Positions 5,743-18,143 of a DNA stretch of 64,000 nt are shown piece by piece. The translations under genes were made by a program, and so were the position numbers. The notes under the pieces are model-generated. The model was not told the DNA's origin, did no database searches, and saw only the letters and a list, made by a program, of their open reading frames with translations. Source of the DNA: Candidatus Binataceae bacterium (GTDB taxonomy: Bacteria; Desulfobacterota; Binatia; Binatales; Binataceae); assembly GCA_035493515.1 (NCBI GenBank), contig DATJID010000070.1, positions 27,264 through 91,263 of the forward strand, read 5' to 3'. The first letter of the stretch is position 1; each line of letters starts with the position of its first letter.

Positions 5743-6690
5743 TTAAGCGAGCGCGGCGCGCGTGGCGGCGCCGAGCGTCGCCGCCAGCGCGTTCAGGTCG
5801 TCCATCCCGTAGAATTCGATTTCGATCCGGCCGGGCTTGCGCCCCCGTGCACGCACGATCCGGACTTTGCGCTTGAGCCCGCGCTGAATCCCATCGGCGA
5901 GCGCCGCCAGGTTGGGGTCCGTCCCGGGTCCGCCCGCCGCTGCGCCATGTGCCGCTCCGCCGCGCGCGCCGCGCCGCGCCGCTGCGGCCAGTTCCTCCGC
6001 GCCACGCGCCGAAATCCGGCCCTCGACGATTCGCCGCGCCGCCACCGTCTGCGCCTCGGCGGAGGCCATCGCGAGCAGCGGACGTGCCTGCCCGGCGCTC
6101 AACTCGCCACGCTCCAGCATTCCGAGCACCGCCGGCGGAAAGTCGAGCAGCCGGATCGCATTGCTCACGTAGGGGCGGCTCTTGCCGATACGCGCGGCAA
6201 CCTGGTCATGACTCATCGCAAAGCTGCGGGCCAGGCGCTCGAAGCCGCGCGCTTCGTCGATCGGATTCAAATCTTCGCGCATCAGGTTTTCGACCAGCGA
6301 CATCTCGAGCGCCGCATGGTCGTCGAGTTCGCGCACCACCACCGGCACCACGCCGAGGCCCGCGATACGCGCCGCGCGCCATCGCCGCTCGCCGGCCACC
6401 AGCTCGTATGGCGCGGCCGGGGGGGCCCCGCCGTCGGCCACAGGCGTCGGCCGGACCACCAGCGGTTCGATGATTCCCTGACTGCGGATCGCTTGCGCCA
6501 GCTCCTGGAGCCGCGCAGAATCGAAATGGCGACGCGGCTGCAGCGGGCTCGGCATGATCCGGTCAAGCTCGACGCTCGCGGCCCCGCTTCCATCGACTTC
6601 GGTTCGAGCCGGCGCGGCGTCGCCCGCCAGCGCGCCGTCGGTGCTTTCGATAAGTGCGTCGAGACCACGCCCCAATCCTCTCCGTATCAT
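5743..6690 (-). CDS. parB: Chromosome partitioning protein ParB
   Basis: MIRRGLGRGLDALI N-terminus, ParB box (GIIEPLVVRP, YELVAGERRWRAA) and an HTH. ATG 6690 overlaps the parA stop as ATGA. Confidence 0.9.
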   Translation of the reverse strand: MIRRGLGRGLDALIESTDGALAGDAAPARTEVDGSGAASVELDRIMPSPLQPRRHFDSARLQELAQAIRSQGIIEPLVVRPTPVADGGAPPAAPYELVAGERRWRAARIAGLGVVPVVVRELDDHAALEMSLVENLMREDLNPIDEARGFERLARSFAMSHDQVAARIGKSRPYVSNAIRLLDFPPAVLGMLERGELSAGQARPLLAMASAEAQTVAARRIVEGRISARGAEELAAAARRGARGGAAHGAAAGGPGTDPNLAALADGIQRGLKRKVRIVRARGRKPGRIEIEFYGMDDLNALAATLGAATRAALA

Positions 6691-7607
6691 CCGTTCCTCC
6701 TCTCCCGCTCCGCCGAACGCGCAAAAATGCTTCGCAAATTCCAAATGTTGCGCCTGGGCGATCCCCTGTTCGCGACTTCTTCCGGCTTGCCGTCGTTTGC
6801 GAGTTCACTCTCGGGCCGCGCAGTGGGCTGCGCCACGCCGACGCGCTCCAGCAATTCAAGCGCGAGCAGGCGATAGGCTTCTGCGCCGACCGATTTCGGA
6901 TCGTACTCGGTTACGGCGAGGCCATGGCTGGGGCTCTCGGAAATCCGCACGTTGCGCGGGATCACGGTTTGGAAGACACGCTCTGGAAAGTGCTTGTTGA
7001 CCTCGAGCGAGATCTCATGGCTCAGCCGATTGCGCGAGTCGAACATCGTCAGCACCACGCCCATCAATTCGAGTTGCGGATTCAGCACGGTGTTTACCCG
7101 GCGAATCGTGGCGAGGAGCGAACTCAAGCCTTCCAGGGCATAGTACTCGCACTGCATCGGTACCAGCACGGAATCCGCCGCGACCAGGGCGTTGAGCGTC
7201 AGCAGGCCGAGCGACGGCGGCGTATCAATTAGAACAAAGTTATATTTCTGAGCCTCTTCTGATAATTCGGACTTTAATCGGCGCTCTCGCCCTTCCATCG
7301 TTGCGAGTTCGATTTCAGCGCCGACCAGGTCTGTGCTCGCAGGTGCGAGATGGAGCGACGGCCGTGACTCGCGGATGATTTGCGCCAGCGGAATGCGATT
7401 GACGAGAGAGTCGTAGATCGTGCCCGACTTGATCGGATCGGCTGTGAGCCCTGAGGTCGCGTTACCCTGCGGGTCGAGGTCAACAAGGAGGACCTCCTGT
7501 CCCGATTGCGCCAGCGCGACGGCGAGATTGACGGCGGTGGTCGTCTTGCCGACACCACCCTTCTGATTGGCGATCGCTACGACGCGCCCCACAGCCGGCC
7601 CAACCAC
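6687..7607 (-). CDS. parA: Chromosome partitioning ATPase ParA/Soj
   Basis: Deviant Walker A motif VVAIANQKGGVGKTTTAVNLA. Translationally coupled to parB. Confidence 0.9.
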   Translation of the reverse strand: MVGPAVGRVVAIANQKGGVGKTTTAVNLAVALAQSGQEVLLVDLDPQGNATSGLTADPIKSGTIYDSLVNRIPLAQIIRESRPSLHLAPASTDLVGAEIELATMEGRERRLKSELSEEAQKYNFVLIDTPPSLGLLTLNALVAADSVLVPMQCEYYALEGLSSLLATIRRVNTVLNPQLELMGVVLTMFDSRNRLSHEISLEVNKHFPERVFQTVIPRNVRISESPSHGLAVTEYDPKSVGAEAYRLLALELLERVGVAQPTARPESELANDGKPEEVANRGSPRRNIWNLRSIFARSAERERRNG

Positions 7608-7717
7608 CTTGAGACGTCGGCGCCGGGTTACAGTCGTCGCGCCGCTCTCGACTCGATAATTGCACCGCGAAGATCATAATGCAAAAGCGGATCGCAGCGG
7701 ACGGTTAAATTGCTGAT

Positions 7718-8515
7718 TTAGCGGCGTTTCAGAGATCGATTGGAACCTACCAAAGATTTGTGCCAGAGCACGGCGGTGCGCGCCGCGACAAGCTCGCCAT
7801 GCGGCAAACGATAAGTCCATGTGATTCGATCGGCAAAGTTCTGCTTCGCCGCTCGTTCGGAGCCTTCGGCAAGGGCATCGGCAGAACCACTATCCGCCAC
7901 CTGCTCAGCGCTCGCGTACAAAAGAAGGATACCTGCGGGACGCAGCGCGGCGGCGGCGATTTCGTAGAGCTCGACCGAAGTGCCGAAGGCGCGCGCCGTC
8001 ACGAGGTCGAAGCCGCTTGCGATACTTTCCGCGCTGGCGCGGCGCCGTTCGATTTCAACGTTTGCGAGATCCATCTCCTGCGCCGTGACTTGCAGGTAGC
8101 TCGCCCGTTTGCGCCTGGCCTCGGCGAGCGTGAATCGCGCCGCAAAGGCGGCGGCGAGCACAAGACCGGGAAAGCCGCCGCCAGAACCGAGATCGAGAAC
8201 TGTCGCGTCCTTGGCCAGCGCCAGATTGAGCGCCTCGCGAGCGGCCCCAGCAGCGAACGCTACGGGCGCGAGGCTGTCTATTATATGGAAGGCAATCTCA
8301 GACGGGTCGGACGCGGCTGCGGTCAGGTTGGTATGCGCACCCCACAGGGCCAGGGCGGCAGCCATCTTTTCGATCCGTTCGAGAAAGCCGTCGCCCAGGC
8401 TCAGTGTTGTACCGTTCAACCATCGCGCCACAAGCTCGCGCACCTCGTTCGCGAGCTTCTCAATGTTGGTTTCACGTGAAACACGTGACGCTCGGCCGAT
8501 CTGCGATCGTTTCAC
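7718..8515 (-). CDS. rsmG: 16S rRNA (guanine527-N7)-methyltransferase RsmG (GidB)
   Basis: SAM motif VLDLGSGGGFPGLVLA and an N-terminal VSRET...W....NLT pattern. Position between mnmG and parA fits. The start (GTG 8515) is uncertain because it lies inside a parS site. Confidence 0.85.
   Translation of the reverse strand: MKRSQIGRASRVSRETNIEKLANEVRELVARWLNGTTLSLGDGFLERIEKMAAALALWGAHTNLTAAASDPSEIAFHIIDSLAPVAFAAGAAREALNLALAKDATVLDLGSGGGFPGLVLAAAFAARFTLAEARRKRASYLQVTAQEMDLANVEIERRRASAESIASGFDLVTARAFGTSVELYEIAAAALRPAGILLLYASAEQVADSGSADALAEGSERAAKQNFADRITWTYRLPHGELVAARTAVLWHKSLVGSNRSLKRR
8468..8483. promoter_or_regulatory. parS centromere-like site (ParB binding)
   Basis: GGTTTCACGTGAAACA matches the parS consensus TGTTTCACGTGAAACA at 15 of 16 positions and has a perfect 14-bp palindromic core. 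It lies in the 5' coding region of rsmG, next to parAB. Confidence 0.85.
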
Positions 8516-8523
8516 GTGAAACG
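8508..8523. promoter_or_regulatory. parS centromere-like site (second copy)
   Basis: CGTTTCACGTGAAACG has the same perfect 14-bp core, GTTTCACGTGAAAC. It lies 40 bp (centre to centre) from the first copy and overlaps the predicted rsmG start. Confidence 0.75.
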
Positions 8524-8524
8524 G

Positions 8525-10414
8525 TCAGGAACCGCTGGACGCTCCCGAGGCGGGGCCGTGGCGGCGGCTCTTCAGATGGAATGCGATGAGCGAAATCGCC
8601 GCCGGGGTCATCCCGGGCATCCGCGCCGCCTGTCCGAGCGACCGCGGTCGCACGCTGAGCAGGCGCTCGCGAACCTCGGTCGAAAGTCCGCTCACGGCCG
8701 AATAATCCACCCATTCGGGGATAACCGCGTCTTCGAGCCGTTTGAATCGGTCGACCATCTCAGCCTGCCGCCTGACGTAACCTTCATATTTGATGTCGAC
8801 TTCGAGTTGCGCGGCCTCGTCAACGTCGAGCCCTGGTCTCAGGCCTGCCATCGCCAGCACTGCGGCGTACGAGACCTCCGGCCGTTTCAAGAGCTCAAAG
8901 GCGCGTGTGGGATGCTCGATCGGTGTCGACCCGCAATCGAGCAGCATCGAATTGACTGCGTCATCCGCGGCAACGAGCGCTCCGGAAAGCCGCGCGACCT
9001 CGTCCTTGACGCGTTCGTCCTTGCTCCGCAACCGCTCGCCGGCAGCCGCATTGAGCAGGCCTATCCGCTCTCCGGCTGGCGTGAGTCGCCGATCCGCATT
9101 GTCTTCGCGCAACAGCAGGCGGTATTCGGCGCGCGACGTAAACATGCGATAGGGCTCGCCGCCGATACCGCGCGTTACCAGGTCATCGATCATGACACCG
9201 ATATAGGCCTCGTCGCGCCTCAGAATCAACGGAGATTCCTGGCGAATTCGCAACGCGGCATTGATTCCCGCCATCAACCCCTGCGCTCCCGCCTCTTCGT
9301 AGCCCGTAGTCCCGTTGATTTGGCCGGCGAAGAACAAGCCCTCGACCAGCTTGGTCTCAAGCGAAGGCTGTAACTGGGTGGGATCGGAAAAGTCATACTC
9401 GATAGCGTAACCGGGGCGCATGATTTCCGCGCGCTCAAGCCCTTTTATCGACCGCACCATCGCCAGTTGCACGTCGAGCGGCAGACTGGTCGAAAGTCCG
9501 TTGGGGTATACCTCCATCGTGTCGCGTCCCTCGGGTTCAAGAAAAATCTGGTGGCGTTCCTTATCACGAAAACGCATCACCTTGTCCTCGACCGACGGGC
9601 AATAGCGCGGCCCGCGGCTCTGGATCGCTCCGGAGTACATGGGCGACCGGTCGATCCCGCCGCGAATGATCTCGTGCGTCCGCGCATTGGTGTAGGTTAG
9701 ATGGCACGCGACCTGGTCCTGTTCGATCCGCTTGGTGCGAAACGAAAACGGCGGCGGCGGATCGTCGCCCGGCTGAATCTCGAGTTCGGAGTAGTCGATA
9801 CTGCGGCTGTCCAGGCGCGGGCAGGTGCCGGTCTTGAGCCGCCCGATACGGAAACCGAGTTGCGCGAGGTGCTCGCTAAGGCCCATCGCGGCAAAATCGC
9901 CCGCGCGGCCCGCCGAGTAATTGCGGAGCCCAATATGGACCAGGCCTTTTAAGAACGTCCCTGTAGTCAGGATGACGCATTCGGCTTCGAAAACCTCGCC
10001 GATTTGCGATTCCACGCCACGTACGTGTCCATCCTCGACCAGCAGGCGCTCCACACTCGCCTGGCGAATCGTCAGGTTGGGCGTGACCTCGAGCACACGC
10101 TTCATCCGCGCGCGGTAAGCGGCCTTGTCGGCCTGGGCGCGGCGCGCGCGCACGGCCGGTCCTTTGCGCGTGTTGAGGACGCGGAACTGGATTCCGGTTT
10201 CATCGATGGCGAGCGCCATTTCGCCGCCAAGCGCGTCGATCTCGCGCACCAGGTGCCCTTTGCCGATCCCGCCGATTGCCGGATTGCATGACATCTGGCC
10301 GATATGGTCGAGATTGAGCGTGAGCATCAGGGTGGGAACGCCCATCCGTGCCGCGGCCAGCGCGGCTTCGATACCTGCGTGACCGGCGCCGACAACGATT
10401 ACGCGAAAATTCAT
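8525..10414 (-). CDS. mnmG: tRNA uridine 5-carboxymethylaminomethyl modification enzyme MnmG (GidA)
   Basis: MNFRVIVVGAGHAGIEAA FAD motif and full-length GidA-like sequence (SCNPAIGGIGKGHLVREIDALGG). An alternative start lies at 10438. Confidence 0.95.
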   Translation of the reverse strand: MNFRVIVVGAGHAGIEAALAAARMGVPTLMLTLNLDHIGQMSCNPAIGGIGKGHLVREIDALGGEMALAIDETGIQFRVLNTRKGPAVRARRAQADKAAYRARMKRVLEVTPNLTIRQASVERLLVEDGHVRGVESQIGEVFEAECVILTTGTFLKGLVHIGLRNYSAGRAGDFAAMGLSEHLAQLGFRIGRLKTGTCPRLDSRSIDYSELEIQPGDDPPPPFSFRTKRIEQDQVACHLTYTNARTHEIIRGGIDRSPMYSGAIQSRGPRYCPSVEDKVMRFRDKERHQIFLEPEGRDTMEVYPNGLSTSLPLDVQLAMVRSIKGLERAEIMRPGYAIEYDFSDPTQLQPSLETKLVEGLFFAGQINGTTGYEEAGAQGLMAGINAALRIRQESPLILRRDEAYIGVMIDDLVTRGIGGEPYRMFTSRAEYRLLLREDNADRRLTPAGERIGLLNAAAGERLRSKDERVKDEVARLSGALVAADDAVNSMLLDCGSTPIEHPTRAFELLKRPEVSYAAVLAMAGLRPGLDVDEAAQLEVDIKYEGYVRRQAEMVDRFKRLEDAVIPEWVDYSAVSGLSTEVRERLLSVRPRSLGQAARMPGMTPAAISLIAFHLKSRRHGPASGASSGS

Positions 10415-10495
10415 AGAGGTGGGGATTATGGCGCGCATGACGCGTCAGGCCAAGCGCCATGAGGCGAGCGTTTATATACCAATAGTAGAGAAATA

Positions 10496-11878
10496 TTACT
10501 TTCCGATACAGAACTCGCGGAACACCGCGTCGAGCACATCCTCGGCGCCGACCTCGCCGGTGATCGCGCCCAGGGCCTCCGCCGCGGCCGCCGCGTCGAC
10601 CGCGACGATCTCGGGTGGCATGCCGGCGAGCGCGCTGGCTCGCGCGCGCTCGAGCGCTTCCAGAGCCGTCGCGAGTGCTTGACGATGACGCTCGCGGGAG
10701 ATCGCGACATCGTCACCCGGGCCCGAGGCGGCCAGCGCCTCGACCACGCGTCCCAGTTCGTCGCGCAGCGCCGGCGTGCCCTCGGCACTGAGCGCGGAGA
10801 AGCGCATTATCGGCATCCCCAGGCCCCGCTCCAAAAGGTCGGCGGGCGAGAGCGCCGGCGGCCGCAGGTCGGATTTATTGAGTAGCGCGACGCCGGCGCG
10901 CTCGCGGCAAAGTTCGAGCACTCGCGCGTCGTCGTCGTCGAAGGGGCGCGAAGAGTCAAAAACCGCAATCACGAGATCCGCCTCAGCGACACTGCTCAGC
11001 GTGCGCCCGATTCCGATACGCTCGACCTCGTCACCCGCCTCGCGGACCCCGGCGGTGTCCTGAAGCACGAGCGGCCAGGAGCCCAACGTAACCGATTCCT
11101 CGACAACGTCGCGGGTGGTTCCTGGAGTCGCGGTCACGATTGCGCGGTCGGCGCCGAGCATAAGGTTGAGCACGCTGGACTTGCCCGCGTTGGGCTTTCC
11201 CACAATGGTCGCGCGTGCGCCCTCGCGCGTGATACGCCCGCGCCGAAAGCTGTCATGGAGCAACGCAATGTCGTCGGCAAGGCGCGCGATTTCCGCAGCG
11301 ATTTCCTTGCGACCTGGCAGCTTGAGTCCCTCGTCCGCGAAGTCGATCTCAGTCTCCAGATGGGCTCGTATAGCAATTATGCCGCTGCGCAACTGCGTTA
11401 CTCGTTGCGTCAGCGCACCGCTAAGTTGCGCTAATGCTTGCTTAAGTGCGCTTTCGCTACGCACGTCTATCAAATCCGCAACCGCTTCTGCTTCGGTCAA
11501 ATCCATCCGCCCATTGAGGAAAGCGCGGCGGCTGAATTCGCCCGGATCGGCCATCCGGGCTCCGGCGGACATCGCGAGTCCCAGCACCCGGCGGACGATA
11601 AATGGCCCGCCATGACAGTGGAATTCCACGACATCCTCGCCCGTGAGGCTCGCCGGACCGGGCATCACGACGCACATCGCGCGGTCGATGATAGCGCCGG
11701 TTAGCGGGTCGAGAATCTCGCCGATACTGAGGCGGCGCGGTCGCAAGGGTGCCGAACGGAGCGATCGCCACAAAGTCGAGGCGATCTGCGTCGCATGGGC
11801 GCCCGAAAGTCGCACGATCGCAACGGCGCCTTTGCCCGCAGGCGTGGCCGGCGCGACGATAGTATCCTCGGCGTACAT
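10496..11878 (-). CDS. mnmE: tRNA modification GTPase MnmE (TrmE)
   Basis: DTIVAPATPAGKGAVAIVRLSG N-terminus, G-domain motifs (GKPNAGKSS, DTAG) and a C-terminal CIGK. ATG 11878 was chosen inside the longer track ORF. Confidence 0.93.
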   Translation of the reverse strand: MYAEDTIVAPATPAGKGAVAIVRLSGAHATQIASTLWRSLRSAPLRPRRLSIGEILDPLTGAIIDRAMCVVMPGPASLTGEDVVEFHCHGGPFIVRRVLGLAMSAGARMADPGEFSRRAFLNGRMDLTEAEAVADLIDVRSESALKQALAQLSGALTQRVTQLRSGIIAIRAHLETEIDFADEGLKLPGRKEIAAEIARLADDIALLHDSFRRGRITREGARATIVGKPNAGKSSVLNLMLGADRAIVTATPGTTRDVVEESVTLGSWPLVLQDTAGVREAGDEVERIGIGRTLSSVAEADLVIAVFDSSRPFDDDDARVLELCRERAGVALLNKSDLRPPALSPADLLERGLGMPIMRFSALSAEGTPALRDELGRVVEALAASGPGDDVAISRERHRQALATALEALERARASALAGMPPEIVAVDAAAAAEALGAITGEVGAEDVLDAVFREFCIGK

Positions 11879-12087
11879 CAGCGCATCGACTTCATTGGTG
11901 TGGGCCGCGCGCACGACGGACAATTCCCGCGCATCCAACCTGCCTTTTGATAGCACAATAGGCTTGCCCGCGCGGCGTCCGTATGGTTCGATGGCTTGTT
12001 CAGCGTGAGGCTCGCGCCTCGTCGTGAATAATCAAACATGGTGGGCTCGACACGAGCCGGCATTCGGCCTCGTTCTGGCTTCAGGCG

Positions 12088-12246
12088 ATGAAAAGGACTT
12101 ATCAACCGCACAACCGCCGCCGTTTACGAACGCACGGATTCATGGCGCGTATGGCCACGCCGGGGGGAAGAAACATTCTCAGACGCCGGCGCGCCAAAGG
12201 GCGCGTGCGCCTGGCGATCAGCATTCCTCCCAAGCAGCCCGGCTAG
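12088..12246 (+). CDS. rpmH: 50S ribosomal protein L34
   Basis: Not in the ORF track (52 aa). Hand translation gives [52 protein letters not shown], ending at TAG 12244-12246. It sits directly upstream of rnpA. Confidence 0.9.
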
Positions 12247-12265
12247 ACCGGCGGCGGTCGCCGTC

Positions 12266-12685
12266 TTGATCTCCAACTCGGCGGGGTTCGGCGCGGCCGA
12301 CCGGTTGCGCAAGTCCGGAGAATTTCTTGCGCTCCAGCGCCGAGGCGCGCGACACCAGAGCGGACATTTTGTGCTCTACGGTGATGTTGGCGACGCGGCC
12401 GGCGAGCGCTCGCGGCTGGGAATCACGGTCTCGCGCCGGATCGGCAACGCCGTGGTGCGCAACCGGGTCAAGCGCCGCGTGCGAGAGTGCTACCGGCTTA
12501 AACTGCGCGCGATGTTACCGGCGGGAGTGGCGATGGTGGTGATCGCGCGCAAGGGCGCCGGCGAGCTCGAATGGACGGCGATCGACGCCGAACTTCTCGG
12601 CGGGGTCGCCAAGCTCGGCTGCAAACTCAGCGGCAAGCTCAACCAATCCGTACCTATGCCGGGACCGGAGCGTCGCAGTGATTGA
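12266..12685 (+). CDS. rnpA: Ribonuclease P protein component
   Basis: TTG start. [14 protein letters not shown]...[24 protein letters not shown] (RNR motif). Position after rpmH fits. Confidence 0.85.
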
Positions 12686-12965
12686 ACCAGTCTGCAGGCG
12701 GCTTCGCGCCGCGCCTGTGGCGGCGGCACTGGGCGCCGTTACGGCCTACAGGCGCCTGATCTCGCCGGTGCTGACGGTAATGACCGGTCCCGTCTGCCGC
12801 TTCGAGCCGACCTGTTCCGAATACGCACATCAGGCCTTGGCTATTCACGGCCTTGGCCGCGGCCTTTACCTTAGCCTGCGCCGGCTTTTGCGCTGCCGTC
12901 CGTTGGGCGGATACGGTTACGACCCCGTGCCGGCGAATCCGGCCCGAAGCCCGCAACCTTCCTGA
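12678..12965 (+). CDS. yidD: Membrane protein insertion efficiency factor YidD
   Basis: YRRLISPVL...[17 protein letters not shown] signature. Overlaps the rnpA end and precedes yidC. Confidence 0.85.
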
Positions 12966-12974
12966 AGGAGCAAT

Positions 12975-14711
12975 TTGGACAGTACACGCCAGATCGTCAT
13001 CTTCGTCCTGCTGGTCGTCGCGGCGATCTTTTATGCCGATATCATCCGCTGGATTCGTCCGCCGAAGGCGCCAATCGGTCAACCGACGGCGCAGCGAACC
13101 GGCGCCACACCGGCCGTCCCGGCTCGGTCGGGTACAGCTCCGATACAGGCTTCGACGGAGCCGCCAGCGGCGTCCCCGATGGCGACCGCCGGCTCGACCG
13201 AGCAGCCGACGGGCGGCGTCCCGGAACCCGAATCGCTGACCCCGCCGACGCTGAGCACCGGCCCCTCGCGCACGATAGAAGCCGACACTGACCTTTACCA
13301 CGCCACCTTTACGGCCAAGGGCGCGCGTCTCCTGAGCTTCCGGCTGAAGCGCTATCGGGAAACGGTACGCAAGGATAGTCCGCAATACGACGTCGTCGTG
13401 CAGGGCGAGCGTCTGCCGCTCGGGCTGATTGTCAACCGCGACGGTAAAATCTTCGGCGATTCGGGCGTCGACTACACGACTGACGCGCCCGCGCAGGTCG
13501 TTATCGGACCGGGCAACGACACCGCGACGGTGACCTTCACCGCCGATACCCGGGAAGGGCTCAAGCTGACCAAGCGTTTCATCTTCCGCAATGGCCGATA
13601 CCTATACGACATCGAAGCGGAAGTTGGCGGTGCGACCCCTGACGTCAAGGCGATTGGGTTCACCATGACCCAGCCGCTGACCGAGCGTGCGCCGGAGCAG
13701 GGCTATCGGGATTATCCGGCGCTTGAGGCCGATATCGATGGCAAGGTCCTCAATGAATACCAGAAACAGCTCGAAAAGGGCCTTGCGCCGGTCTCTGGCG
13801 ACATCGCCTTCGCCGGCATTGGCGATCGCTATTTCCTTTCCGCCTTCATCCCCAAGGCGCCCACCAAGGGCGAGCTGCGGATGGAGTACAGCGGGGGCGA
13901 GGCGCGGGCCGAGGTGCTGTTTCCGGGAGCGCTGAAGGCTTCGACTGCGGTTTACATGGGGCCCAAGCAGCTCAATTTGCTGGAGGCTGCGAGTCCGACG
14001 CTGAGCAAGGCAATCAACTTCGGCTGGTTCGGGCTGCTGGCGGTGGTTTTTCTACGCGCGCTGCAACTCCTGCATACCATCGCGCCGAACTACGGCTGGG
14101 ACATCATATTACTGACGCTCGCGGTACGGCTGGCTACCCTGCCGGCGTCAATCAAGGCCCAGCGCTCGGCGCTGCGGATGCAACGGCTCGCCCCGCAGGT
14201 CGAGAAAATCCGCGCCAAATTCAAGGATGATTCGACGGCGCTCAATCGCGAGATGATGGAGCTGTACAAGCGTAACCACGTCAACCCGCTCGGAGGATGC
14301 CTCCCCACGGCTATCCAGTTTCCGATCCTTTATGGCTTGTACGAGGCGCTGCTCAATTCGGTAGAGCTTCGCCATGCCCCATTCATCTTCTGGATCAGGG
14401 ATTTGTCGGCGCCCGACTGCCTGCCCATCGCCTGGATGCCCAAGGTACCGGGGATTGACTGCCATGGCCTGCCGATCGTGGTTTTGCTGATGGGCATTAG
14501 CACGTTCGCCCAGCAATGGATGATGCCCAAGGCGGGCGACCCCAATCAGCAGAAGATGATGATGTGGATGCCTATCTTCTTCACCGTGCTGTTTATAGCT
14601 TTGCCAGCCGGGTTGTCCCTCTATTACTTTGCCTCCAACGTACTGGGTATAATTCAACAGTTTTTCCTGAATCGGGAATTCAAACAGTACACCCCAGTTG
14701 CCGCAGCATGA
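12975..14711 (+). CDS. yidC: Membrane protein insertase YidC
   Basis: N-terminal TM helix, a large periplasmic domain and a conserved C-terminal 60-kDa insertase core (NPLGGCLP, PIFFTVLFIALPAGLSLYYF). Confidence 0.93.
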   Translation: MDSTRQIVIFVLLVVAAIFYADIIRWIRPPKAPIGQPTAQRTGATPAVPARSGTAPIQASTEPPAASPMATAGSTEQPTGGVPEPESLTPPTLSTGPSRTIEADTDLYHATFTAKGARLLSFRLKRYRETVRKDSPQYDVVVQGERLPLGLIVNRDGKIFGDSGVDYTTDAPAQVVIGPGNDTATVTFTADTREGLKLTKRFIFRNGRYLYDIEAEVGGATPDVKAIGFTMTQPLTERAPEQGYRDYPALEADIDGKVLNEYQKQLEKGLAPVSGDIAFAGIGDRYFLSAFIPKAPTKGELRMEYSGGEARAEVLFPGALKASTAVYMGPKQLNLLEAASPTLSKAINFGWFGLLAVVFLRALQLLHTIAPNYGWDIILLTLAVRLATLPASIKAQRSALRMQRLAPQVEKIRAKFKDDSTALNREMMELYKRNHVNPLGGCLPTAIQFPILYGLYEALLNSVELRHAPFIFWIRDLSAPDCLPIAWMPKVPGIDCHGLPIVVLLMGISTFAQQWMMPKAGDPNQQKMMMWMPIFFTVLFIALPAGLSLYYFASNVLGIIQQFFLNREFKQYTPVAAA

Positions 14712-15877
14712 GCGAACCTAACGAAGCGATCGAGGTAACCGCCCCCAGCGTCGATGAAGCGATCAAGCAGGCGCTCGATCAGCTGGGAGCCTCCGAGGAC
14801 GATGTCATTATCCACGTGCTGAGCACCCCGCGCTCCGGCGTGCTCGGACTCGGCGCGCGCCAAGCCCGCGTGCGCGTGGAACGCCGAGCGCCACAAGGCG
14901 CGCGTAGCGGCGTCATGTCACCGCCGCCCGCGCCGCCGCCGCGTCCGCGCGCGCCCGCTCAGTCCACCGCCGCAAGCGCAGCCGGTACCGGCGAACCGCG
15001 GACCGCGCCGCCATTGCGCGCTCATAGCCAGCAACGCACTGCCGAACAGCCGCGCGAGCGTGAAGCACCGCGCGAACACGATCAACTTCGCGAGCGCAAT
15101 CAGGCGCCCGAACGCGACCGGCGCCGCGATCAGCCGCCGCCGTCGCGGTCAAGCGGCCCCGCACAGCGCCGCAACGACGCCGCCGCGCCGCGGCATGAGG
15201 AAGGCTCGAGCGGAGGCGACGAGGATGGAAGCGAAGCAGGGCGGAAAGCGGTCGGGCTTGATGAGCAGGCGCGCGAGGCAACTGCCATCCTGGCGCACGT
15301 GCTCGAACTGATGGGCGAGCGCGGAGAGATCACCGTCACTGAGGAAGACTCGGAGGGAATCGAGCTGGCCATCAAGGGCGACGGCTCCGGGCTGCTCATC
15401 GGACGCCATGGCCAGACCCTGGATTCGCTGGAATATCTCGTCAATCGCATCCTGGCGCGGCGGGTCAAGGACGCCGTGCCAATCACGGTCGACACGGAAT
15501 CTTACCGCGAGCGCCGCCGGCGCCAGCTTCATCGGATGGCGCTCTCGATGGCCGAGCAGACTAAGCGCGAGCATGCCTCTGTCACGCTTGATCCGATGCC
15601 GCCGCGCGACCGGCGCATCGTGCACCTCGCGCTCAAAGACGATCCGCTGATCACGACCCGCTCCACGGGCGACGGTTTCCTGCGCGCGGTCGAGATAATT
15701 CCTGTTGGCGAGCGCCGCGAAAGTGCTCGCGGCGACGGGCGGCCGCGAGGCGGCGGCGGTGGCAGTGGTGGCGGCCGCAATCGCGATCGCGAGCGAGAGT
15801 CCGAGCCGCAGCGCGAGCGCGATCAACCGGTCGGCCAGCAAGGTGGCTTCAAGCACGGTCAGAAACGGATGTTCTAG
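14708..15877 (+). CDS. jag: Jag/KhpB-type RNA-binding protein (Jag_N + KH + R3H) with long disordered insert and RGG-rich tail
   Basis: ATG 14708 overlaps the yidC stop (ATGA). Jag_N (IEVTAPSVDEAIKQALDQLG), a KH-like region (GIELAIKGDGSGLLIGRHGQTLDSLEYL) and R3H (RIVHLALKDDP) are present. Confidence 0.8.
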   Translation: MSEPNEAIEVTAPSVDEAIKQALDQLGASEDDVIIHVLSTPRSGVLGLGARQARVRVERRAPQGARSGVMSPPPAPPPRPRAPAQSTAASAAGTGEPRTAPPLRAHSQQRTAEQPREREAPREHDQLRERNQAPERDRRRDQPPPSRSSGPAQRRNDAAAPRHEEGSSGGDEDGSEAGRKAVGLDEQAREATAILAHVLELMGERGEITVTEEDSEGIELAIKGDGSGLLIGRHGQTLDSLEYLVNRILARRVKDAVPITVDTESYRERRRRQLHRMALSMAEQTKREHASVTLDPMPPRDRRIVHLALKDDPLITTRSTGDGFLRAVEIIPVGERRESARGDGRPRGGGGGSGGGRNRDRERESEPQRERDQPVGQQGGFKHGQKRMF

Positions 15878-15912: not shown

Positions 15913-16038
15913 CGGTCAGTATCCTGTCCGACCGTTCAAAATGTCCGAATTTCTTCGGAAACCCCCGTCCAAGGCCTACGTATCGTTAGATGGAGGCTGA
16001 TGCGATGGTTGATGGGCTGAGCTCGGGAGGAGCTGAAG

Positions 16039-17625
16039 ATGAGGGCACTTAAGAGTCTTGTGGCAGCGGCCGTTGTGATGTTGATGCTGACGGCGCCGGC
16101 GCTCGCGCAATATGCCCCGTGGCCTGCACAAGCACCTCCCCCACCGGTATGGGGCGAATACGATCAGAGCCACACCTGGCACGACGCGTCATGGTGGTGG
16201 GCGAACCAGCCCGAGTGGGTTCAAGCCAATCATCCGGAATGGTGGGGCGATTTCGACGAAGACCACATGTGGCATCCCGCCGGGTGGTGGTGGCAGAACG
16301 AGCCAGCCTGGACGCAACTACATCATCCCGAGTGGTGGGGCGATTTTTACCAGGGCGTATGGTACCCCGCTTCCTGGTGGTGGCAGTATCAGCCCGCCTG
16401 GGCGCGCGCGAATCATCCCGAATGGTGGGGCTACCGCGACAATGGTGTCTGGTATCCGGCGTCGTGGTGGTGGCGGCATAAGCGCGAATGGATGCTCGAA
16501 CATCATCCTGACTGGTGGGGCAACGATTACCAGGGAACGTGGTATCCGGCGTCGTGGTGGTGGCAGAACGACCCCGTTTGGGTGCAGGAGAATCATCCCG
16601 ACTGGTGGGGCGACTACGATCAGGACCGATGGTACCCGGCCGATTGGTGGTGGGCGCATCGGCCCGACTACGCGCGCCAGAATCATCCCGACTGGTGGGG
16701 CGATTTCGACGACCATCACGTCTGGCACAACGACTCGTGGTGGCATCAGAACAATCCCACCTGGATTCCCCAGCATCATCCCGAATGGCAGGGCGACACC
16801 GACGCCCAGCATCAATGGCATGACCTGAACTGGTGGGCGGCCAGAGAGCCCCAGGTCGCGGTCGCGCGTCACCCGGACTGGCGCCAGCCGCTGCAACAGT
16901 CAATCGAGCGCCAGCACGTCGAGCAGCAGCACGCGATCGAGAATCATCACGATACTCAGGCGCAGGTGATCGCGCGCCAGCATACCGAGCAGCTTCAGGT
17001 GGTGGAGCGAAAAAGCCAGGCCCAGCTGCAAACGATCGAGCAACAGCACACCCGGCGGATGTCGGACCTCGAGCGCCAACACGAGCAACAGCAACTGCCG
17101 CAGCGCCAATTACGGCAACCACCCCAGCGGCTGGAACAGCAGCCGCCGCCGCCGCAACACCCGCCGCAGCAGCGAGGGCCGGCCGGCCCGCCCGCATCAG
17201 GAGCGGGACTGCAGGCCCTGCAACAGCACGAGCAGCAGGTGCAGGCGCTGGAGCGCCAGCATCAGCAGCAAGTGCTGGCGGCGACGCAACGGCAAATGCA
17301 GCAGGAGCAGGCCGCGGCCCAACAACACCTCGCGCAGCAGCAAGCGCTCGAGCGCACGCAGGCGGCGCGGGAGCAGGCCGTCGAGAGCCGGCACAATCAA
17401 CAGCTTCAGGCGTTGTCACATCCGAACCCCAAGCCGCCCCCGCCGCGGATCGCGCCTCCGCCCCCGCCGCAGTTTCACGGCAATCCGATTCCGCCGCATC
17501 GGGCGGCTGCGGCTTTGCCACCTTCGCACGGTCCCGCTCCCGGCGGCCCACCGCCGCAGCACGGTGCTCCGCCCCCTCAAGCGGCGCATGGCGGCGGACC
17601 CCAGGGGCCGCAGAAGCATCACTAG
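16039..17625 (+). CDS. Secreted Trp-rich tandem-repeat protein with Gln/His-rich coiled-coil and Pro-rich tail (function unknown)
   Basis: ATG 16039 is preceded by GGGAGGAG. Signal peptide MRALKSLVAAAVVMLMLTAPALA|Q. Eight 30-31-aa repeats of the form HP[ED]WWGD.D...W[YH]PA.WWW.N.P.W...N, followed by ERQH/QQ-rich segments and PPPP stretches. Confidence 0.7.
   Translation: MRALKSLVAAAVVMLMLTAPALAQYAPWPAQAPPPPVWGEYDQSHTWHDASWWWANQPEWVQANHPEWWGDFDEDHMWHPAGWWWQNEPAWTQLHHPEWWGDFYQGVWYPASWWWQYQPAWARANHPEWWGYRDNGVWYPASWWWRHKREWMLEHHPDWWGNDYQGTWYPASWWWQNDPVWVQENHPDWWGDYDQDRWYPADWWWAHRPDYARQNHPDWWGDFDDHHVWHNDSWWHQNNPTWIPQHHPEWQGDTDAQHQWHDLNWWAAREPQVAVARHPDWRQPLQQSIERQHVEQQHAIENHHDTQAQVIARQHTEQLQVVERKSQAQLQTIEQQHTRRMSDLERQHEQQQLPQRQLRQPPQRLEQQPPPPQHPPQQRGPAGPPASGAGLQALQQHEQQVQALERQHQQQVLAATQRQMQQEQAAAQQHLAQQQALERTQAAREQAVESRHNQQLQALSHPNPKPPPPRIAPPPPPQFHGNPIPPHRAAAALPPSHGPAPGGPPPQHGAPPPQAAHGGGPQGPQKHH
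16111..16890 (+). repeat. Intragenic tandem repeat, about 8 units of 90-93 bp
   Basis: The unit start recurs as (c/a)atcatcc(c/t)ga(g/a/c)tggtggggc at about 16231, 16324, 16414, 16504, 16594, 16684 and 16777. The repeats are in frame and encode the Trp-rich units. Confidence 0.85.
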
Positions 17626-17681
17626 CGCGGACGCAACAGACCGGCCCCAGGGTGCGGCGGTCATCGGGAAGGAACGTGACG

Positions 17682-17720
17682 GCGGCGCCGGATACGCGAG
17701 GATCGCGAATCCGGCGCCGC
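17682..17720. terminator. Long GC hairpin between convergent genes (probable bidirectional terminator)
   Basis: GCGGCGCCGGAT-a-CGCGA-gga-TCGCG-a-ATCCGGCGCCGC gives 12+5 bp of perfect pairing. It lies between the repeat-protein stop (17625) and the ferredoxin stop (17784). There is no U-tract. Confidence 0.5.
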
Positions 17721-17783
17721 TGGTCGATTCGGGCCGTTAGCTTATCTGGCTCAGTCGCCTGCGATTAGCTGGGCGCACCACCG

Positions 17784-18143
17784 CTAGGCGTTCGGGTCGA
17801 GCCCCCACTTGCGTTTGTTCTCCGCGATCTGGTCGGAGGTGGGATGTTCGGTCTGGGTGAAGGTCTTCACTTTGAACTGGTCGGCTAGTTCCAGCGTGGC
17901 ATGGTTAAGCGCGATGTCGTCCTTAAAGACCTCGGGGGTCGCCGGTTCCTCGAAGATCGCCTGCCATGGGCACTCCGGTTCGCAGGCGCCGCAGTCGATA
18001 CATTCGTCGGGGTTGATATAGAGCATGTTGGGGAAGCGCTGTTTGTCCTCGCCCACATACTCGTAGATGCAATCGACCGGACACACGCTGACGCATCCGG
18101 TGTCAACGCAGTCAATGCACAGTCGGGTTATGGTCCAGGGCAT
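17784..18143 (-). CDS. fdxA: 7Fe (3Fe-4S/4Fe-4S) ferredoxin, Azotobacter FdI type
   Basis: [21 protein letters not shown]...[19 protein letters not shown] cysteine pattern, as in FdxA-type ferredoxins. Confidence 0.85.

Follow-up and report, generated by a model that had tools for sequence, protein, structure and literature searches.

A tryptophan-rich repeat protein of Candidatus Binataceae and a predicted unit fold without known relatives

The stretch of Candidatus Binataceae DNA analysed here ("the window": 64,000 nucleotides of contig DATJID010000070.1 of assembly GCA_035493515.1, positions 27,264 to 91,263, numbered from its first letter) contains on its plus strand a gene (16039..17625) for an exported protein of 528 residues, in which eight tandem tryptophan-rich units, the W repeats, are followed by a C-terminal half of 11-residue helical repeats. 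Because no known relative is found at the level of the family or of the predicted fold of its unit, both are rated as categorically new, as judged from profile searches and structure modelling. This novelty concerns the family and the fold, and a function is only proposed; the one that we tentatively favour is the binding of metal ions in the periplasm.

Eight tryptophan-rich units in an exported protein

The array of units comprises residues 38-281 (16150..16881, plus strand), with unit lengths of 31, 31, 30, 30, 30, 30, 31, and 31 residues in order, and is delineated by a hidden Markov model (HMM) of the unit, an AlphaFold2 model, the ratio of nonsynonymous to synonymous substitution rates (dN/dS), and the insertion or deletion of a single unit in the closest relative. 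Successive HP[ED]W motifs are 30-31 residues apart (at residues 65, 96, 126, 156, 186, 216, 247, and 278), and 52 of the 266 residues between 25 and 290 are Trp (19.5%). An earlier inspection of the bare DNA letters by a model, in the following called the sequence-only reading, had already described eight consecutive units of 30-31 residues and had counted about 50 Trp in about 260 residues by hand, and both statements are borne out. It had also proposed to build an HMM from the units. Such a unit HMM detects eight units in the window protein and 378 units in 39 proteins, and the unit profile and all conservation values given here are derived from the latter.

The profile reads W G D [FY] [DY] x x (H) x W [YRH] P A x W W W x Q x x P x W [VA] R x [HN] H P [ED] W. 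Of its positions, W16 and W34 are conserved in 100% of the units, G2 and P32 in 99%, W10 in 98%, H31 in 97%, W15 in 95%, [ED]33 in 90%, W1 and W26 in 88%, D3 in 82%, and P23 in 81%. Conservation is highest in the stretch H-H-P-[ED]-W-W-G-D-[FY]-D-x-x-H, which bridges each junction between units. Across the repeat domains of the 39 proteins, Trp accounts for 20.9% of the residues (range 19.6-22.6) and Ile, Leu, Val, Met, and Phe together for 8.2%. His amounts to 9.0%, Asp plus Glu to 15.2%, and Lys plus Arg to 5.8%; Cys is close to zero and the isoelectric point (pI) is about 5.2. Within the window protein the units share a mean identity of 49%; the strongest divergence is seen in units 7 and 8, with 29-45% identity to the others, in agreement with the impression of the sequence-only reading that the last two units are degenerating. 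The same reading had placed a periodicity at the DNA level over 16111-16890. With Tandem Repeats Finder, the 90-bp period is limited to 16284-16710 (4.7 copies, 70% matches); the outer units are missed because they are too diverged.

AlphaFold2, applied to residues 24-290 of the window protein with an alignment of five sequences, predicts a strictly repeating pattern with a predicted local distance difference test score (pLDDT) of 79.9 and a predicted template modelling score (pTM) of 0.58. In this model a beta-hairpin is followed in each unit by two 7-residue helices and a one-turn helix. P0036, a relative with only two units, was modelled for an independent control; its predicted elements come in the same order, and an alignment of 65 sequences yields a pLDDT above 90 over the mature part. 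Mapped on the unit profile, predicted strand 1 corresponds to G-D-[FY] and strand 2 to W-[YRH]-P, the hairpin loop between them to D-x-x-H-x or to a shorter Y-Q-G, helix 1 to A-x-W-W-W-x-Q, helix 2 to P-x-W-[VA]-R-x-[HN], and the one-turn helix to H-P-[ED]-W. Because the Trp positions are near-invariant and aliphatic residues make up only about 8%, the Trp would be expected in the core and not at a ligand-facing surface. Most plausibly, the seven near-invariant Trp and three Pro of each unit form a hydrophobic core that replaces the aliphatic residues, and the surface of such a unit would be acidic and studded with His. The stacking on glycan or peptidoglycan that had been suggested for the Trp is disfavoured by this view of the unit.

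The protein is Sec-exported and has no membrane anchor, as read from its sequence and from the conservation of the signal-peptide layout, which recurs in 38 relatives. The start codon at 16039 lies 6 nt downstream of a Shine-Dalgarno-like GGGAGGAG (16025..16032, plus strand), so that the open reading frame (ORF) is well initiated as had been claimed. Residues 1-23 (16039..16107, plus strand) form a predicted Sec signal peptide for signal peptidase I, MRALKSLVAAAVVMLMLTAPALA, to be cleaved before the following Q. Its n-region is basic, its hydrophobic core has 14 residues, and an A-x-A site is present, while the sequence rules detect neither a lipobox Cys nor a twin-Arg motif, and the classical signal peptide seen by the sequence-only reading thus withstands a comparison with the family. 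After the cleavage site no further hydrophobic segment is found by the same rules. The mature protein starts with a Pro-rich segment, QYAPWPAQAPPPPV (residues 24-37, 16108..16149, plus strand), which is conserved in the family as QYxPWPxPxPxAP. There is no Cys in the window protein, and the family contains about 0.3%. The neighbouring YidC carries the periplasmic domain PF14849 (YidC_periplas), which implies a diderm-type envelope of the host. A search of the window for a second copy was negative.

Selection, relatives, and comparison with known families

The idea of a spurious frame that results from the GC-rich DNA repeat and from which no protein is made has to be considered. Two long shadow ORFs that this repeat produces in other frames (16049-17551 on the minus strand, 500 residues, and 16112-16828 on the plus strand, 238 residues) and a promoter scan that finds no sigma-70-like promoter upstream of the gene would be compatible with it. 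However, the comparison with five orthologues yields in this frame dN/dS values of 0.11-0.20 for the signal peptide and repeat part and of 0.21-0.40 for the C-terminal part, at dS values of up to 1.7. The signal peptide, the register of the units, and the C-terminal HH are kept in about 40 genomes, insertions and deletions are in frame and have the size of units, and the Shine-Dalgarno-like sequence is present. As far as sequence comparison can tell, the W-repeat gene is real and under purifying selection in this frame, and a spurious ORF, which had seemed unlikely to the sequence-only reading as well, is effectively refuted.

The nearest locus, L007, is 94.7% identical at the DNA level over the gene; a single clean indel of 90 bp at 16523 sets it apart from the window and corresponds to exactly one unit, which is absent from L007. 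Relatives contain 7 to 11 units, with 11 being the commonest number, so that the variation in unit number, which had been named together with synteny as worth examining, is indeed found. We identified 46 loci in species-representative genomes, all of them in metagenome-assembled genomes that are labelled Candidatus Binataceae, Candidatus Binatus, or uncultured delta/proteobacterium. Three genomes encode two W-repeat paralogues each. With the full-length protein as query, six relatives are found among 5.8 billion clustered proteins; a search with an HMM, run exhaustively against 1.84 billion representatives, yields 102 matches at E<=1e-3, many of them fragments, and a search with the profile of the repeat domain yields 174 relatives.

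The weaker matches outline a wider family that is built from this unit. Its 124 smaller members are secreted two-unit proteins of about 95 residues with the pattern GDYDxxHxWH..WW..HHPDW..HHPEW, whose mature part consists of 21.7% His, 16.8% Trp, and 19.7% Asp plus Glu (65 proteins). Other proteins of 170-450 residues combine N-terminal helical modules of the type NPxLLYxPxY..HPxLxxFL with two or three units, and carry His-rich helical repeats of 7 or 11 residues and ends of the HDHDHH type. Some of these longer proteins are annotated as Binataceae or Binatus, and the source name is "hypothetical protein" in every case. In the metagenome proteins P0241 and P0034, two W units are fused behind a different, long Gln/Pro/Gly-rich repeat ('AAPQLTPQGFNFGQFAQHVAPIAGQVIQHALPLIFSLLAAQPQ...'), so that W units occur together with repeat modules of several unrelated kinds. 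Long-read metagenome assemblies are frameshifted at the GC-rich repeat (L019, L048, and L050), and databases therefore hold chimeric 'proteins'. P0001, P0004, and P0006 are such frameshifted chimeras of the true frame, and P0001 is a false fusion of Jag and the W repeats.

Searches against known families and structures are negative throughout. In Pfam the window protein has no real match at E<=10 beyond low-complexity noise (Menin, E 1.7), and 38 family members have zero matches at E<=0.01. NCBIfam yields no match to the window protein, and neither do PADLOC and PHROGs, which gives no assignment to phages or anti-phage defence. Among the sequences of the PDB, the window protein only hits the Pro-rich low-complexity EspB (E 0.17), the profile of the repeat domain matches nothing, and the two-unit profile only hits designed consensus TPRs (E 0.18-1.9). 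Foldseek finds nothing significant in the PDB with the 267-residue model of the repeat domain (best E 0.8), and nothing significant with the two-unit model either (best E 7.7 in the PDB and 4.5 in BFVD). AlphaFold and Foldseek had been among the proposed checks, and their outcome is a consistent predicted unit fold that has no significant structural match. A search of the full-text literature did not reveal any description of the W-repeat family. The sequence-only reading could not place the protein in any described family, choline-binding, SLH, Sel1, TPR, and WD repeats included; as far as profiles can tell this is correct, and Foldseek is negative as well.

Several families resemble the W repeats in single aspects and were tried as candidates. 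The choline-binding repeats (CW_binding_1) and the clostridial CROPs are also secreted, aromatic-rich proteins of tandem short beta-hairpin repeats with variable repeat number, but their period is about 20 residues, their repeats are all-beta, and their aromatic residues form ligand sites, whereas the W unit has 30-31 residues, a hairpin plus helices, and aromatic residues that appear to form the core. CW_binding_1 was rejected for its period and because its profile does not match. TPR and Sel1 share units of about 30-34 residues with two short helices each, and the TPR consensus even contains 'GDYD', but the W unit has a predicted beta-hairpin; neither family is matched in Pfam, Foldseek recovers no TPR, and only the above-mentioned designed TPRs appear. 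WD40 and SLH are matched neither in Pfam nor in NCBIfam. LDL-receptor class A modules provide the top but non-significant Foldseek hits of both models (LRP2/megalin with E 0.8-5, and LA12 of ApoER2 with E 8.8). They are also small hairpin-plus-turn modules with acidic clusters in tandem, but comprise about 40 residues with an acidic Ca2+ cluster, a Trp, and six Cys in three disulfides, whereas the W family does without Cys. Given the six Cys that this module needs, the absence of any Cys from the window protein, and Foldseek values of E>=0.8, it was rejected as well.

C-terminal half and genomic neighbourhood

The C-terminal half is composed of two blocks of 11-residue repeats (hendecads), a linker, and a tail. 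Block 1 (residues 289-354, 16903..17100, plus strand) contains the six repeats IERQHVEQQHA, IENHHDTQAQV, IARQHTEQLQV, VERKSQAQLQT, IEQQHTRRMSD, and LERQHEQQQLP. It is followed by a Gln/Pro-rich linker that includes PPPPQHPPQQ (residues 355-392, 17101..17214, plus strand), and by block 2 (residues 393-459, 17215..17415, plus strand) with about six repeats, among them LERQHQQQVLA, ATQRQMQQEQA, AAQQHLAQQQA, LERTQAAREQA, and VESRHNQQLQA. The Pro/Gly/His-rich tail (residues 460-528, together with the stop codon 17416..17625, plus strand) ends with GPQKHH; linker and tail were read from the translation, and the polyproline stretches and the PQKHH end described before are both present. The sequence-only reading had regarded the Gln/His segments as heptad-like, which is not supported. 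In 44 family members the autocorrelation at lags 11, 22, and 33 is 0.24, 0.14, and 0.12 for hydrophobic residues and 0.26, 0.13, and 0.16 for His, while there is no signal at lag 7. The anchors of the consensus [LFV][EQ]RQHx[QA][QE]xQA are spaced by 11 (64 times), 33 (21 times), and 44 residues (11 times). The coiled-coil and Pro-rich spacer that the sequence-only reading had proposed thus hold in so far as there is such a spacer and a helical repeat region, which is built from hendecads and not from heptads.

If the helix has 3.67 residues per turn, His5 comes to lie on one helical stripe with the hydrophobic positions 1 and 9, which suggests a narrow, His-bearing seam. The hendecads would form an extended helical rod, probably an oligomeric one, in which each repeat places one conserved His on the hydrophobic stripe. 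Other 11-residue repeats, such as right-handed coiled coils and the repeats of apolipoproteins, LEA proteins, and synuclein, share the strict 11/22/33 periodicity of hydrophobic residues. In contrast to them, the stripe of the W-repeat protein is narrow (about 2 of 11 positions), its His is invariant, and its flanks are Gln-rich; Pfam yields no match to the LEA_4 or apolipoprotein models, and these repeats were rejected as candidates. The LTXXQ motif of CpxP/ZraP was likewise rejected, for a misfit of the register and a missing Pfam match. In 39 proteins the C-terminal part contains 21% Gln and 7.4% His, and the last 30 residues contain on average 24% Gly, 14% His, and 13% Pro. An HH or HR ending is present in 23 of these 39 proteins, and several relatives carry HGGGGGGGHPEAPHGGGG..HH tails. 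The C-terminal module is swappable, the ERQH hendecads being replaced in some paralogues. L044 and L049 have instead an Arg/Glu-rich 'RAEERRxxETHRAEA' repeat, and L039, L042, L043, and L047 have long 'AQQAAQERARQQAL' Gln/Ala repeats.

In the window, the W-repeat gene is located next to an origin-proximal gene set (5743-15877), which consists of parB (5743-6744), parA (6687-7607), rsmG (7718-8515), mnmG (8525-10438), and mnmE (10496-11956) on the minus strand and of rnpA (12266-12685), yidD (12678-12965), yidC (12975-14711), and jag (14708-15877) on the plus strand. The start of jag overlaps the stop of yidC, and Jag/KhpB contains a Pro/Arg/Glu-rich low-complexity insert of about 135 residues between Jag_N (residues 10-58) and the KH domain (residues 196-254). 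L007 shares with the window rnpA-yidD-yidC-jag upstream and genes for a ferredoxin, a glyoxalase, a histidine kinase, and fumC downstream. The location directly behind the yidC-jag operon had been pointed out before and is correct, but it is incidental and without functional meaning, because the synteny of yidC, jag, and the ferredoxin gene is common only to the three nearest relatives (L004, L006, and L007) while the other loci are found in unrelated neighbourhoods. The strong hairpin that had been noted behind the gene (17682-17720) is real in that RNA folding predicts a GC-rich nested hairpin with a 13-bp outer and a 5-bp inner stem at 17681..17721. It sits in the 158-bp gap between the W-repeat gene and the convergent ferredoxin gene (17784-18143, minus strand), and reaches a z-score of only -2.0 when the surrounding 165 nt are considered. 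U-tracts are missing on both sides, and the terminator scan did not call it.

Clustering of the neighbours of all 46 loci shows that the W-repeat gene is usually flanked by genes on the opposite strand and reveals no conserved operon partner. One synteny block comprises the commonest neighbours, namely genes for a pobA-like FAD monooxygenase, a GST, an epoxide hydrolase, and a NicO-like transporter. The NicO-like gene is found on the opposite strand, 1-3 genes downstream, in 16 of the 46 loci (within L009-L038; for example at 13050-13883 on the minus strand of L018). It encodes a membrane protein with a His-rich loop (HSHAHAHDGATHSHPHVH...), which scores 26.0 bits against Pfam NicO with its cut-off of 27.7. 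The contexts of ten relatives are heterogeneous. Short W-unit paralogues are divergent from uvrB in L052 (6001-10944), L056 (7001-9688), and L057 (7001-11297), and are followed downstream by one to five genes for OmpA-like lipoproteins with poly-Pro linkers and by a conserved protein of about 200 residues ('HQSKDGYSIGK'); in L057, two W-unit genes are arranged in tandem. P0002 is divergent from mraZ and the dcw cluster. Taken together, the genomic context gives at most an "envelope" flavour.

Possible functions of the W-repeat protein

Among the functions that we considered, we favour, as a tentative proposal, that the protein binds divalent transition-metal ions, for example Cu(II), Zn(II), or Ni(II), in a multivalent manner, either in the periplasm or in the envelope. 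The Trp/Pro core would leave the His and carboxylate side chains exposed, and the junction stretch HHP[ED]WWGDxDxxH would bring them together. The hendecad rod would offer its conserved His along the hydrophobic seam, repeat by repeat, and the Gly/His tail would chelate metal in addition. The protein might then act as a metal buffer or sink, or metal might cross-link it into an envelope scaffold. Consistent with this proposal, the window protein contains 43 His in 528 residues, and His is enriched together with Asp and Glu at conserved positions, notably H31, [ED]33, and D3 of the unit. The tail is rich in Gly and His, and the two-unit relatives have an even more pronounced His and acidic content, HDHDHDHH-type ends, and helical repeats of 7 or 11 residues that are rich in His. 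The neighbouring NicO-like transporter gene in a third of the loci points in the same direction. Metal binding was one of several suggestions of the sequence-only reading, and it fits the composition (9% His, 15% Asp plus Glu, pI of about 5, Gly/His tail). An export signal without an anchor and a conserved enrichment of His, as they appear from the sequences, are also what characterises the His-rich periplasmic metal binders as a class. SilE/PcoE, CopI, PA4063, and ZrgA are, like the W-repeat protein, Sec-exported and soluble and have no Cys; they share the enrichment of His and acidic residues and the His-rich loops or tails, and are often encoded by single genes. However, they have no sequence or fold similarity to the W-repeat protein. 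These metal binders are small single domains or disordered, whereas the W-repeat protein is an array with 21% Trp followed by hendecads, for which metal binding is only proposed.

Several observations weigh against this proposal. The H-P-E-W and P-x-W motifs are located at the N-termini of predicted helices and might serve as caps with a purely structural role. In half of the units, those with the short YQG loop, the second Asp and the loop His are absent. Across the 46 loci no gene for a metal transporter or regulator is a consistent neighbour, and an operon partner is missing. The score of the NicO-like protein is below the cut-off, its gene is on the opposite strand and belongs to the synteny block of a single lineage, and the association may therefore reflect nothing but shared ancestry. 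The contexts of the shorter relatives are unrelated to metals. In addition, a high His content would also fit pH sensing, haem binding, or protein-protein contacts.

The W-repeat protein could instead be an envelope scaffold or spacer, a rod that is either free of ligands or associated with peptidoglycan or glycan and that sets the spacing or the mechanics of the periplasm or cell surface. In essence this is what the sequence-only reading had proposed, and it is rather unlikely in our estimation. The elongated, modular build of Trp-core beads, long helical repeats, and polyproline linkers would suit such a rod, and a variation between 7 and 11 units is expected of a spacer whose length can be tuned. 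In three Binatus-type contigs, shorter paralogues adjoin OmpA-like lipoproteins of the peptidoglycan-binding kind, which have poly-Pro linkers, and one orthologue is divergent from mraZ and the dcw cluster. However, Pfam recognises no peptidoglycan- or glycan-binding domain, once the signal peptide is cleaved the protein lacks any membrane, lipid, or beta-barrel anchor, the Trp appear to form a core and not a binding surface, and the neighbourhoods are lineage-specific and not operonic.

By analogy to haemophores, one might also imagine a binder of haem, tetrapyrroles, or other planar aromatic compounds, with His as a ligand of the metal centre and Trp stacked on the macrocycle. The high content of His and of aromatic residues would suit it, and some shorter relatives join two or three W units to N-terminal helical modules reminiscent of the mycobacterial haemophore Rv0203 family (PF16525 MHB / TIGR04529), whose members are small, secreted, and helical as well. 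It is also known that Binatota encode many genes for bacteriochlorophyll synthesis but no known pigment-binding partners (PMC8262859). Yet every haemophore match is below the curated cut-offs (PF16525 with 26.0 versus 27.4 bits in P0239 and with 19.9 bits in P0082, TIGR04529 with 24.6 versus 32 bits in P0082), neither Pfam nor NCBIfam detects the module in the window protein, the contexts of the relatives contain no adjacent genes for haem uptake, TonB receptors, or pigments, and the invariant Trp pattern fits a structural core. Of the tetrapyrrole binding suggested by the sequence-only reading, only the faint hint from these shorter relatives remains, and we regard such a function as improbable. 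Still more far-fetched is the idea that the tightly packed arrays of seven Trp per 30 residues (52 in the window protein) are more than a core and act as a functional aromatic ladder in the envelope, with excitonic or electronic coupling. Such a ladder would be an intrinsic chromophore or screen for ultraviolet-B light, like the Trp clusters of plant UVR8, or would transfer charge outside the cytoplasm through the hopping of holes between Trp and Tyr. The His and Asp sites would then tune the ladder or couple it to metals, and the short paralogues beside uvrB in three contigs are a weak echo of this idea. The probability that is left over beyond the readings discussed here belongs to something else. 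Copper monooxygenases, XoxF, and orphan bacteriochlorophyll genes are part of the known biology of the Binatota (PMC8262859), which would agree with several of these readings but does not discriminate between them.

The composition and the predicted fold of the W repeats are unusual and conserved in the lineage, although no long-standing question hinges on the family yet. If the predicted fold is right, the W repeats represent a repeat architecture in which Trp, at about 21% of the residues, takes the role of the core while aliphatic residues are reduced to about 8%. Such a Trp-core repeat would be useful for the cataloguing of protein folds and for the design of repeat proteins. The family is specific to and conserved in Binataceae, an abundant uncultured soil group, and could thus mark the envelope biology of this lineage. 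If metal is indeed bound by the His/Asp junctions, the hendecads, and the tail, as we tentatively propose, the W-repeat proteins would constitute a new class of high-capacity periplasmic metal buffers, in organisms that rely on copper- and lanthanide-dependent one-carbon (C1) enzymes.

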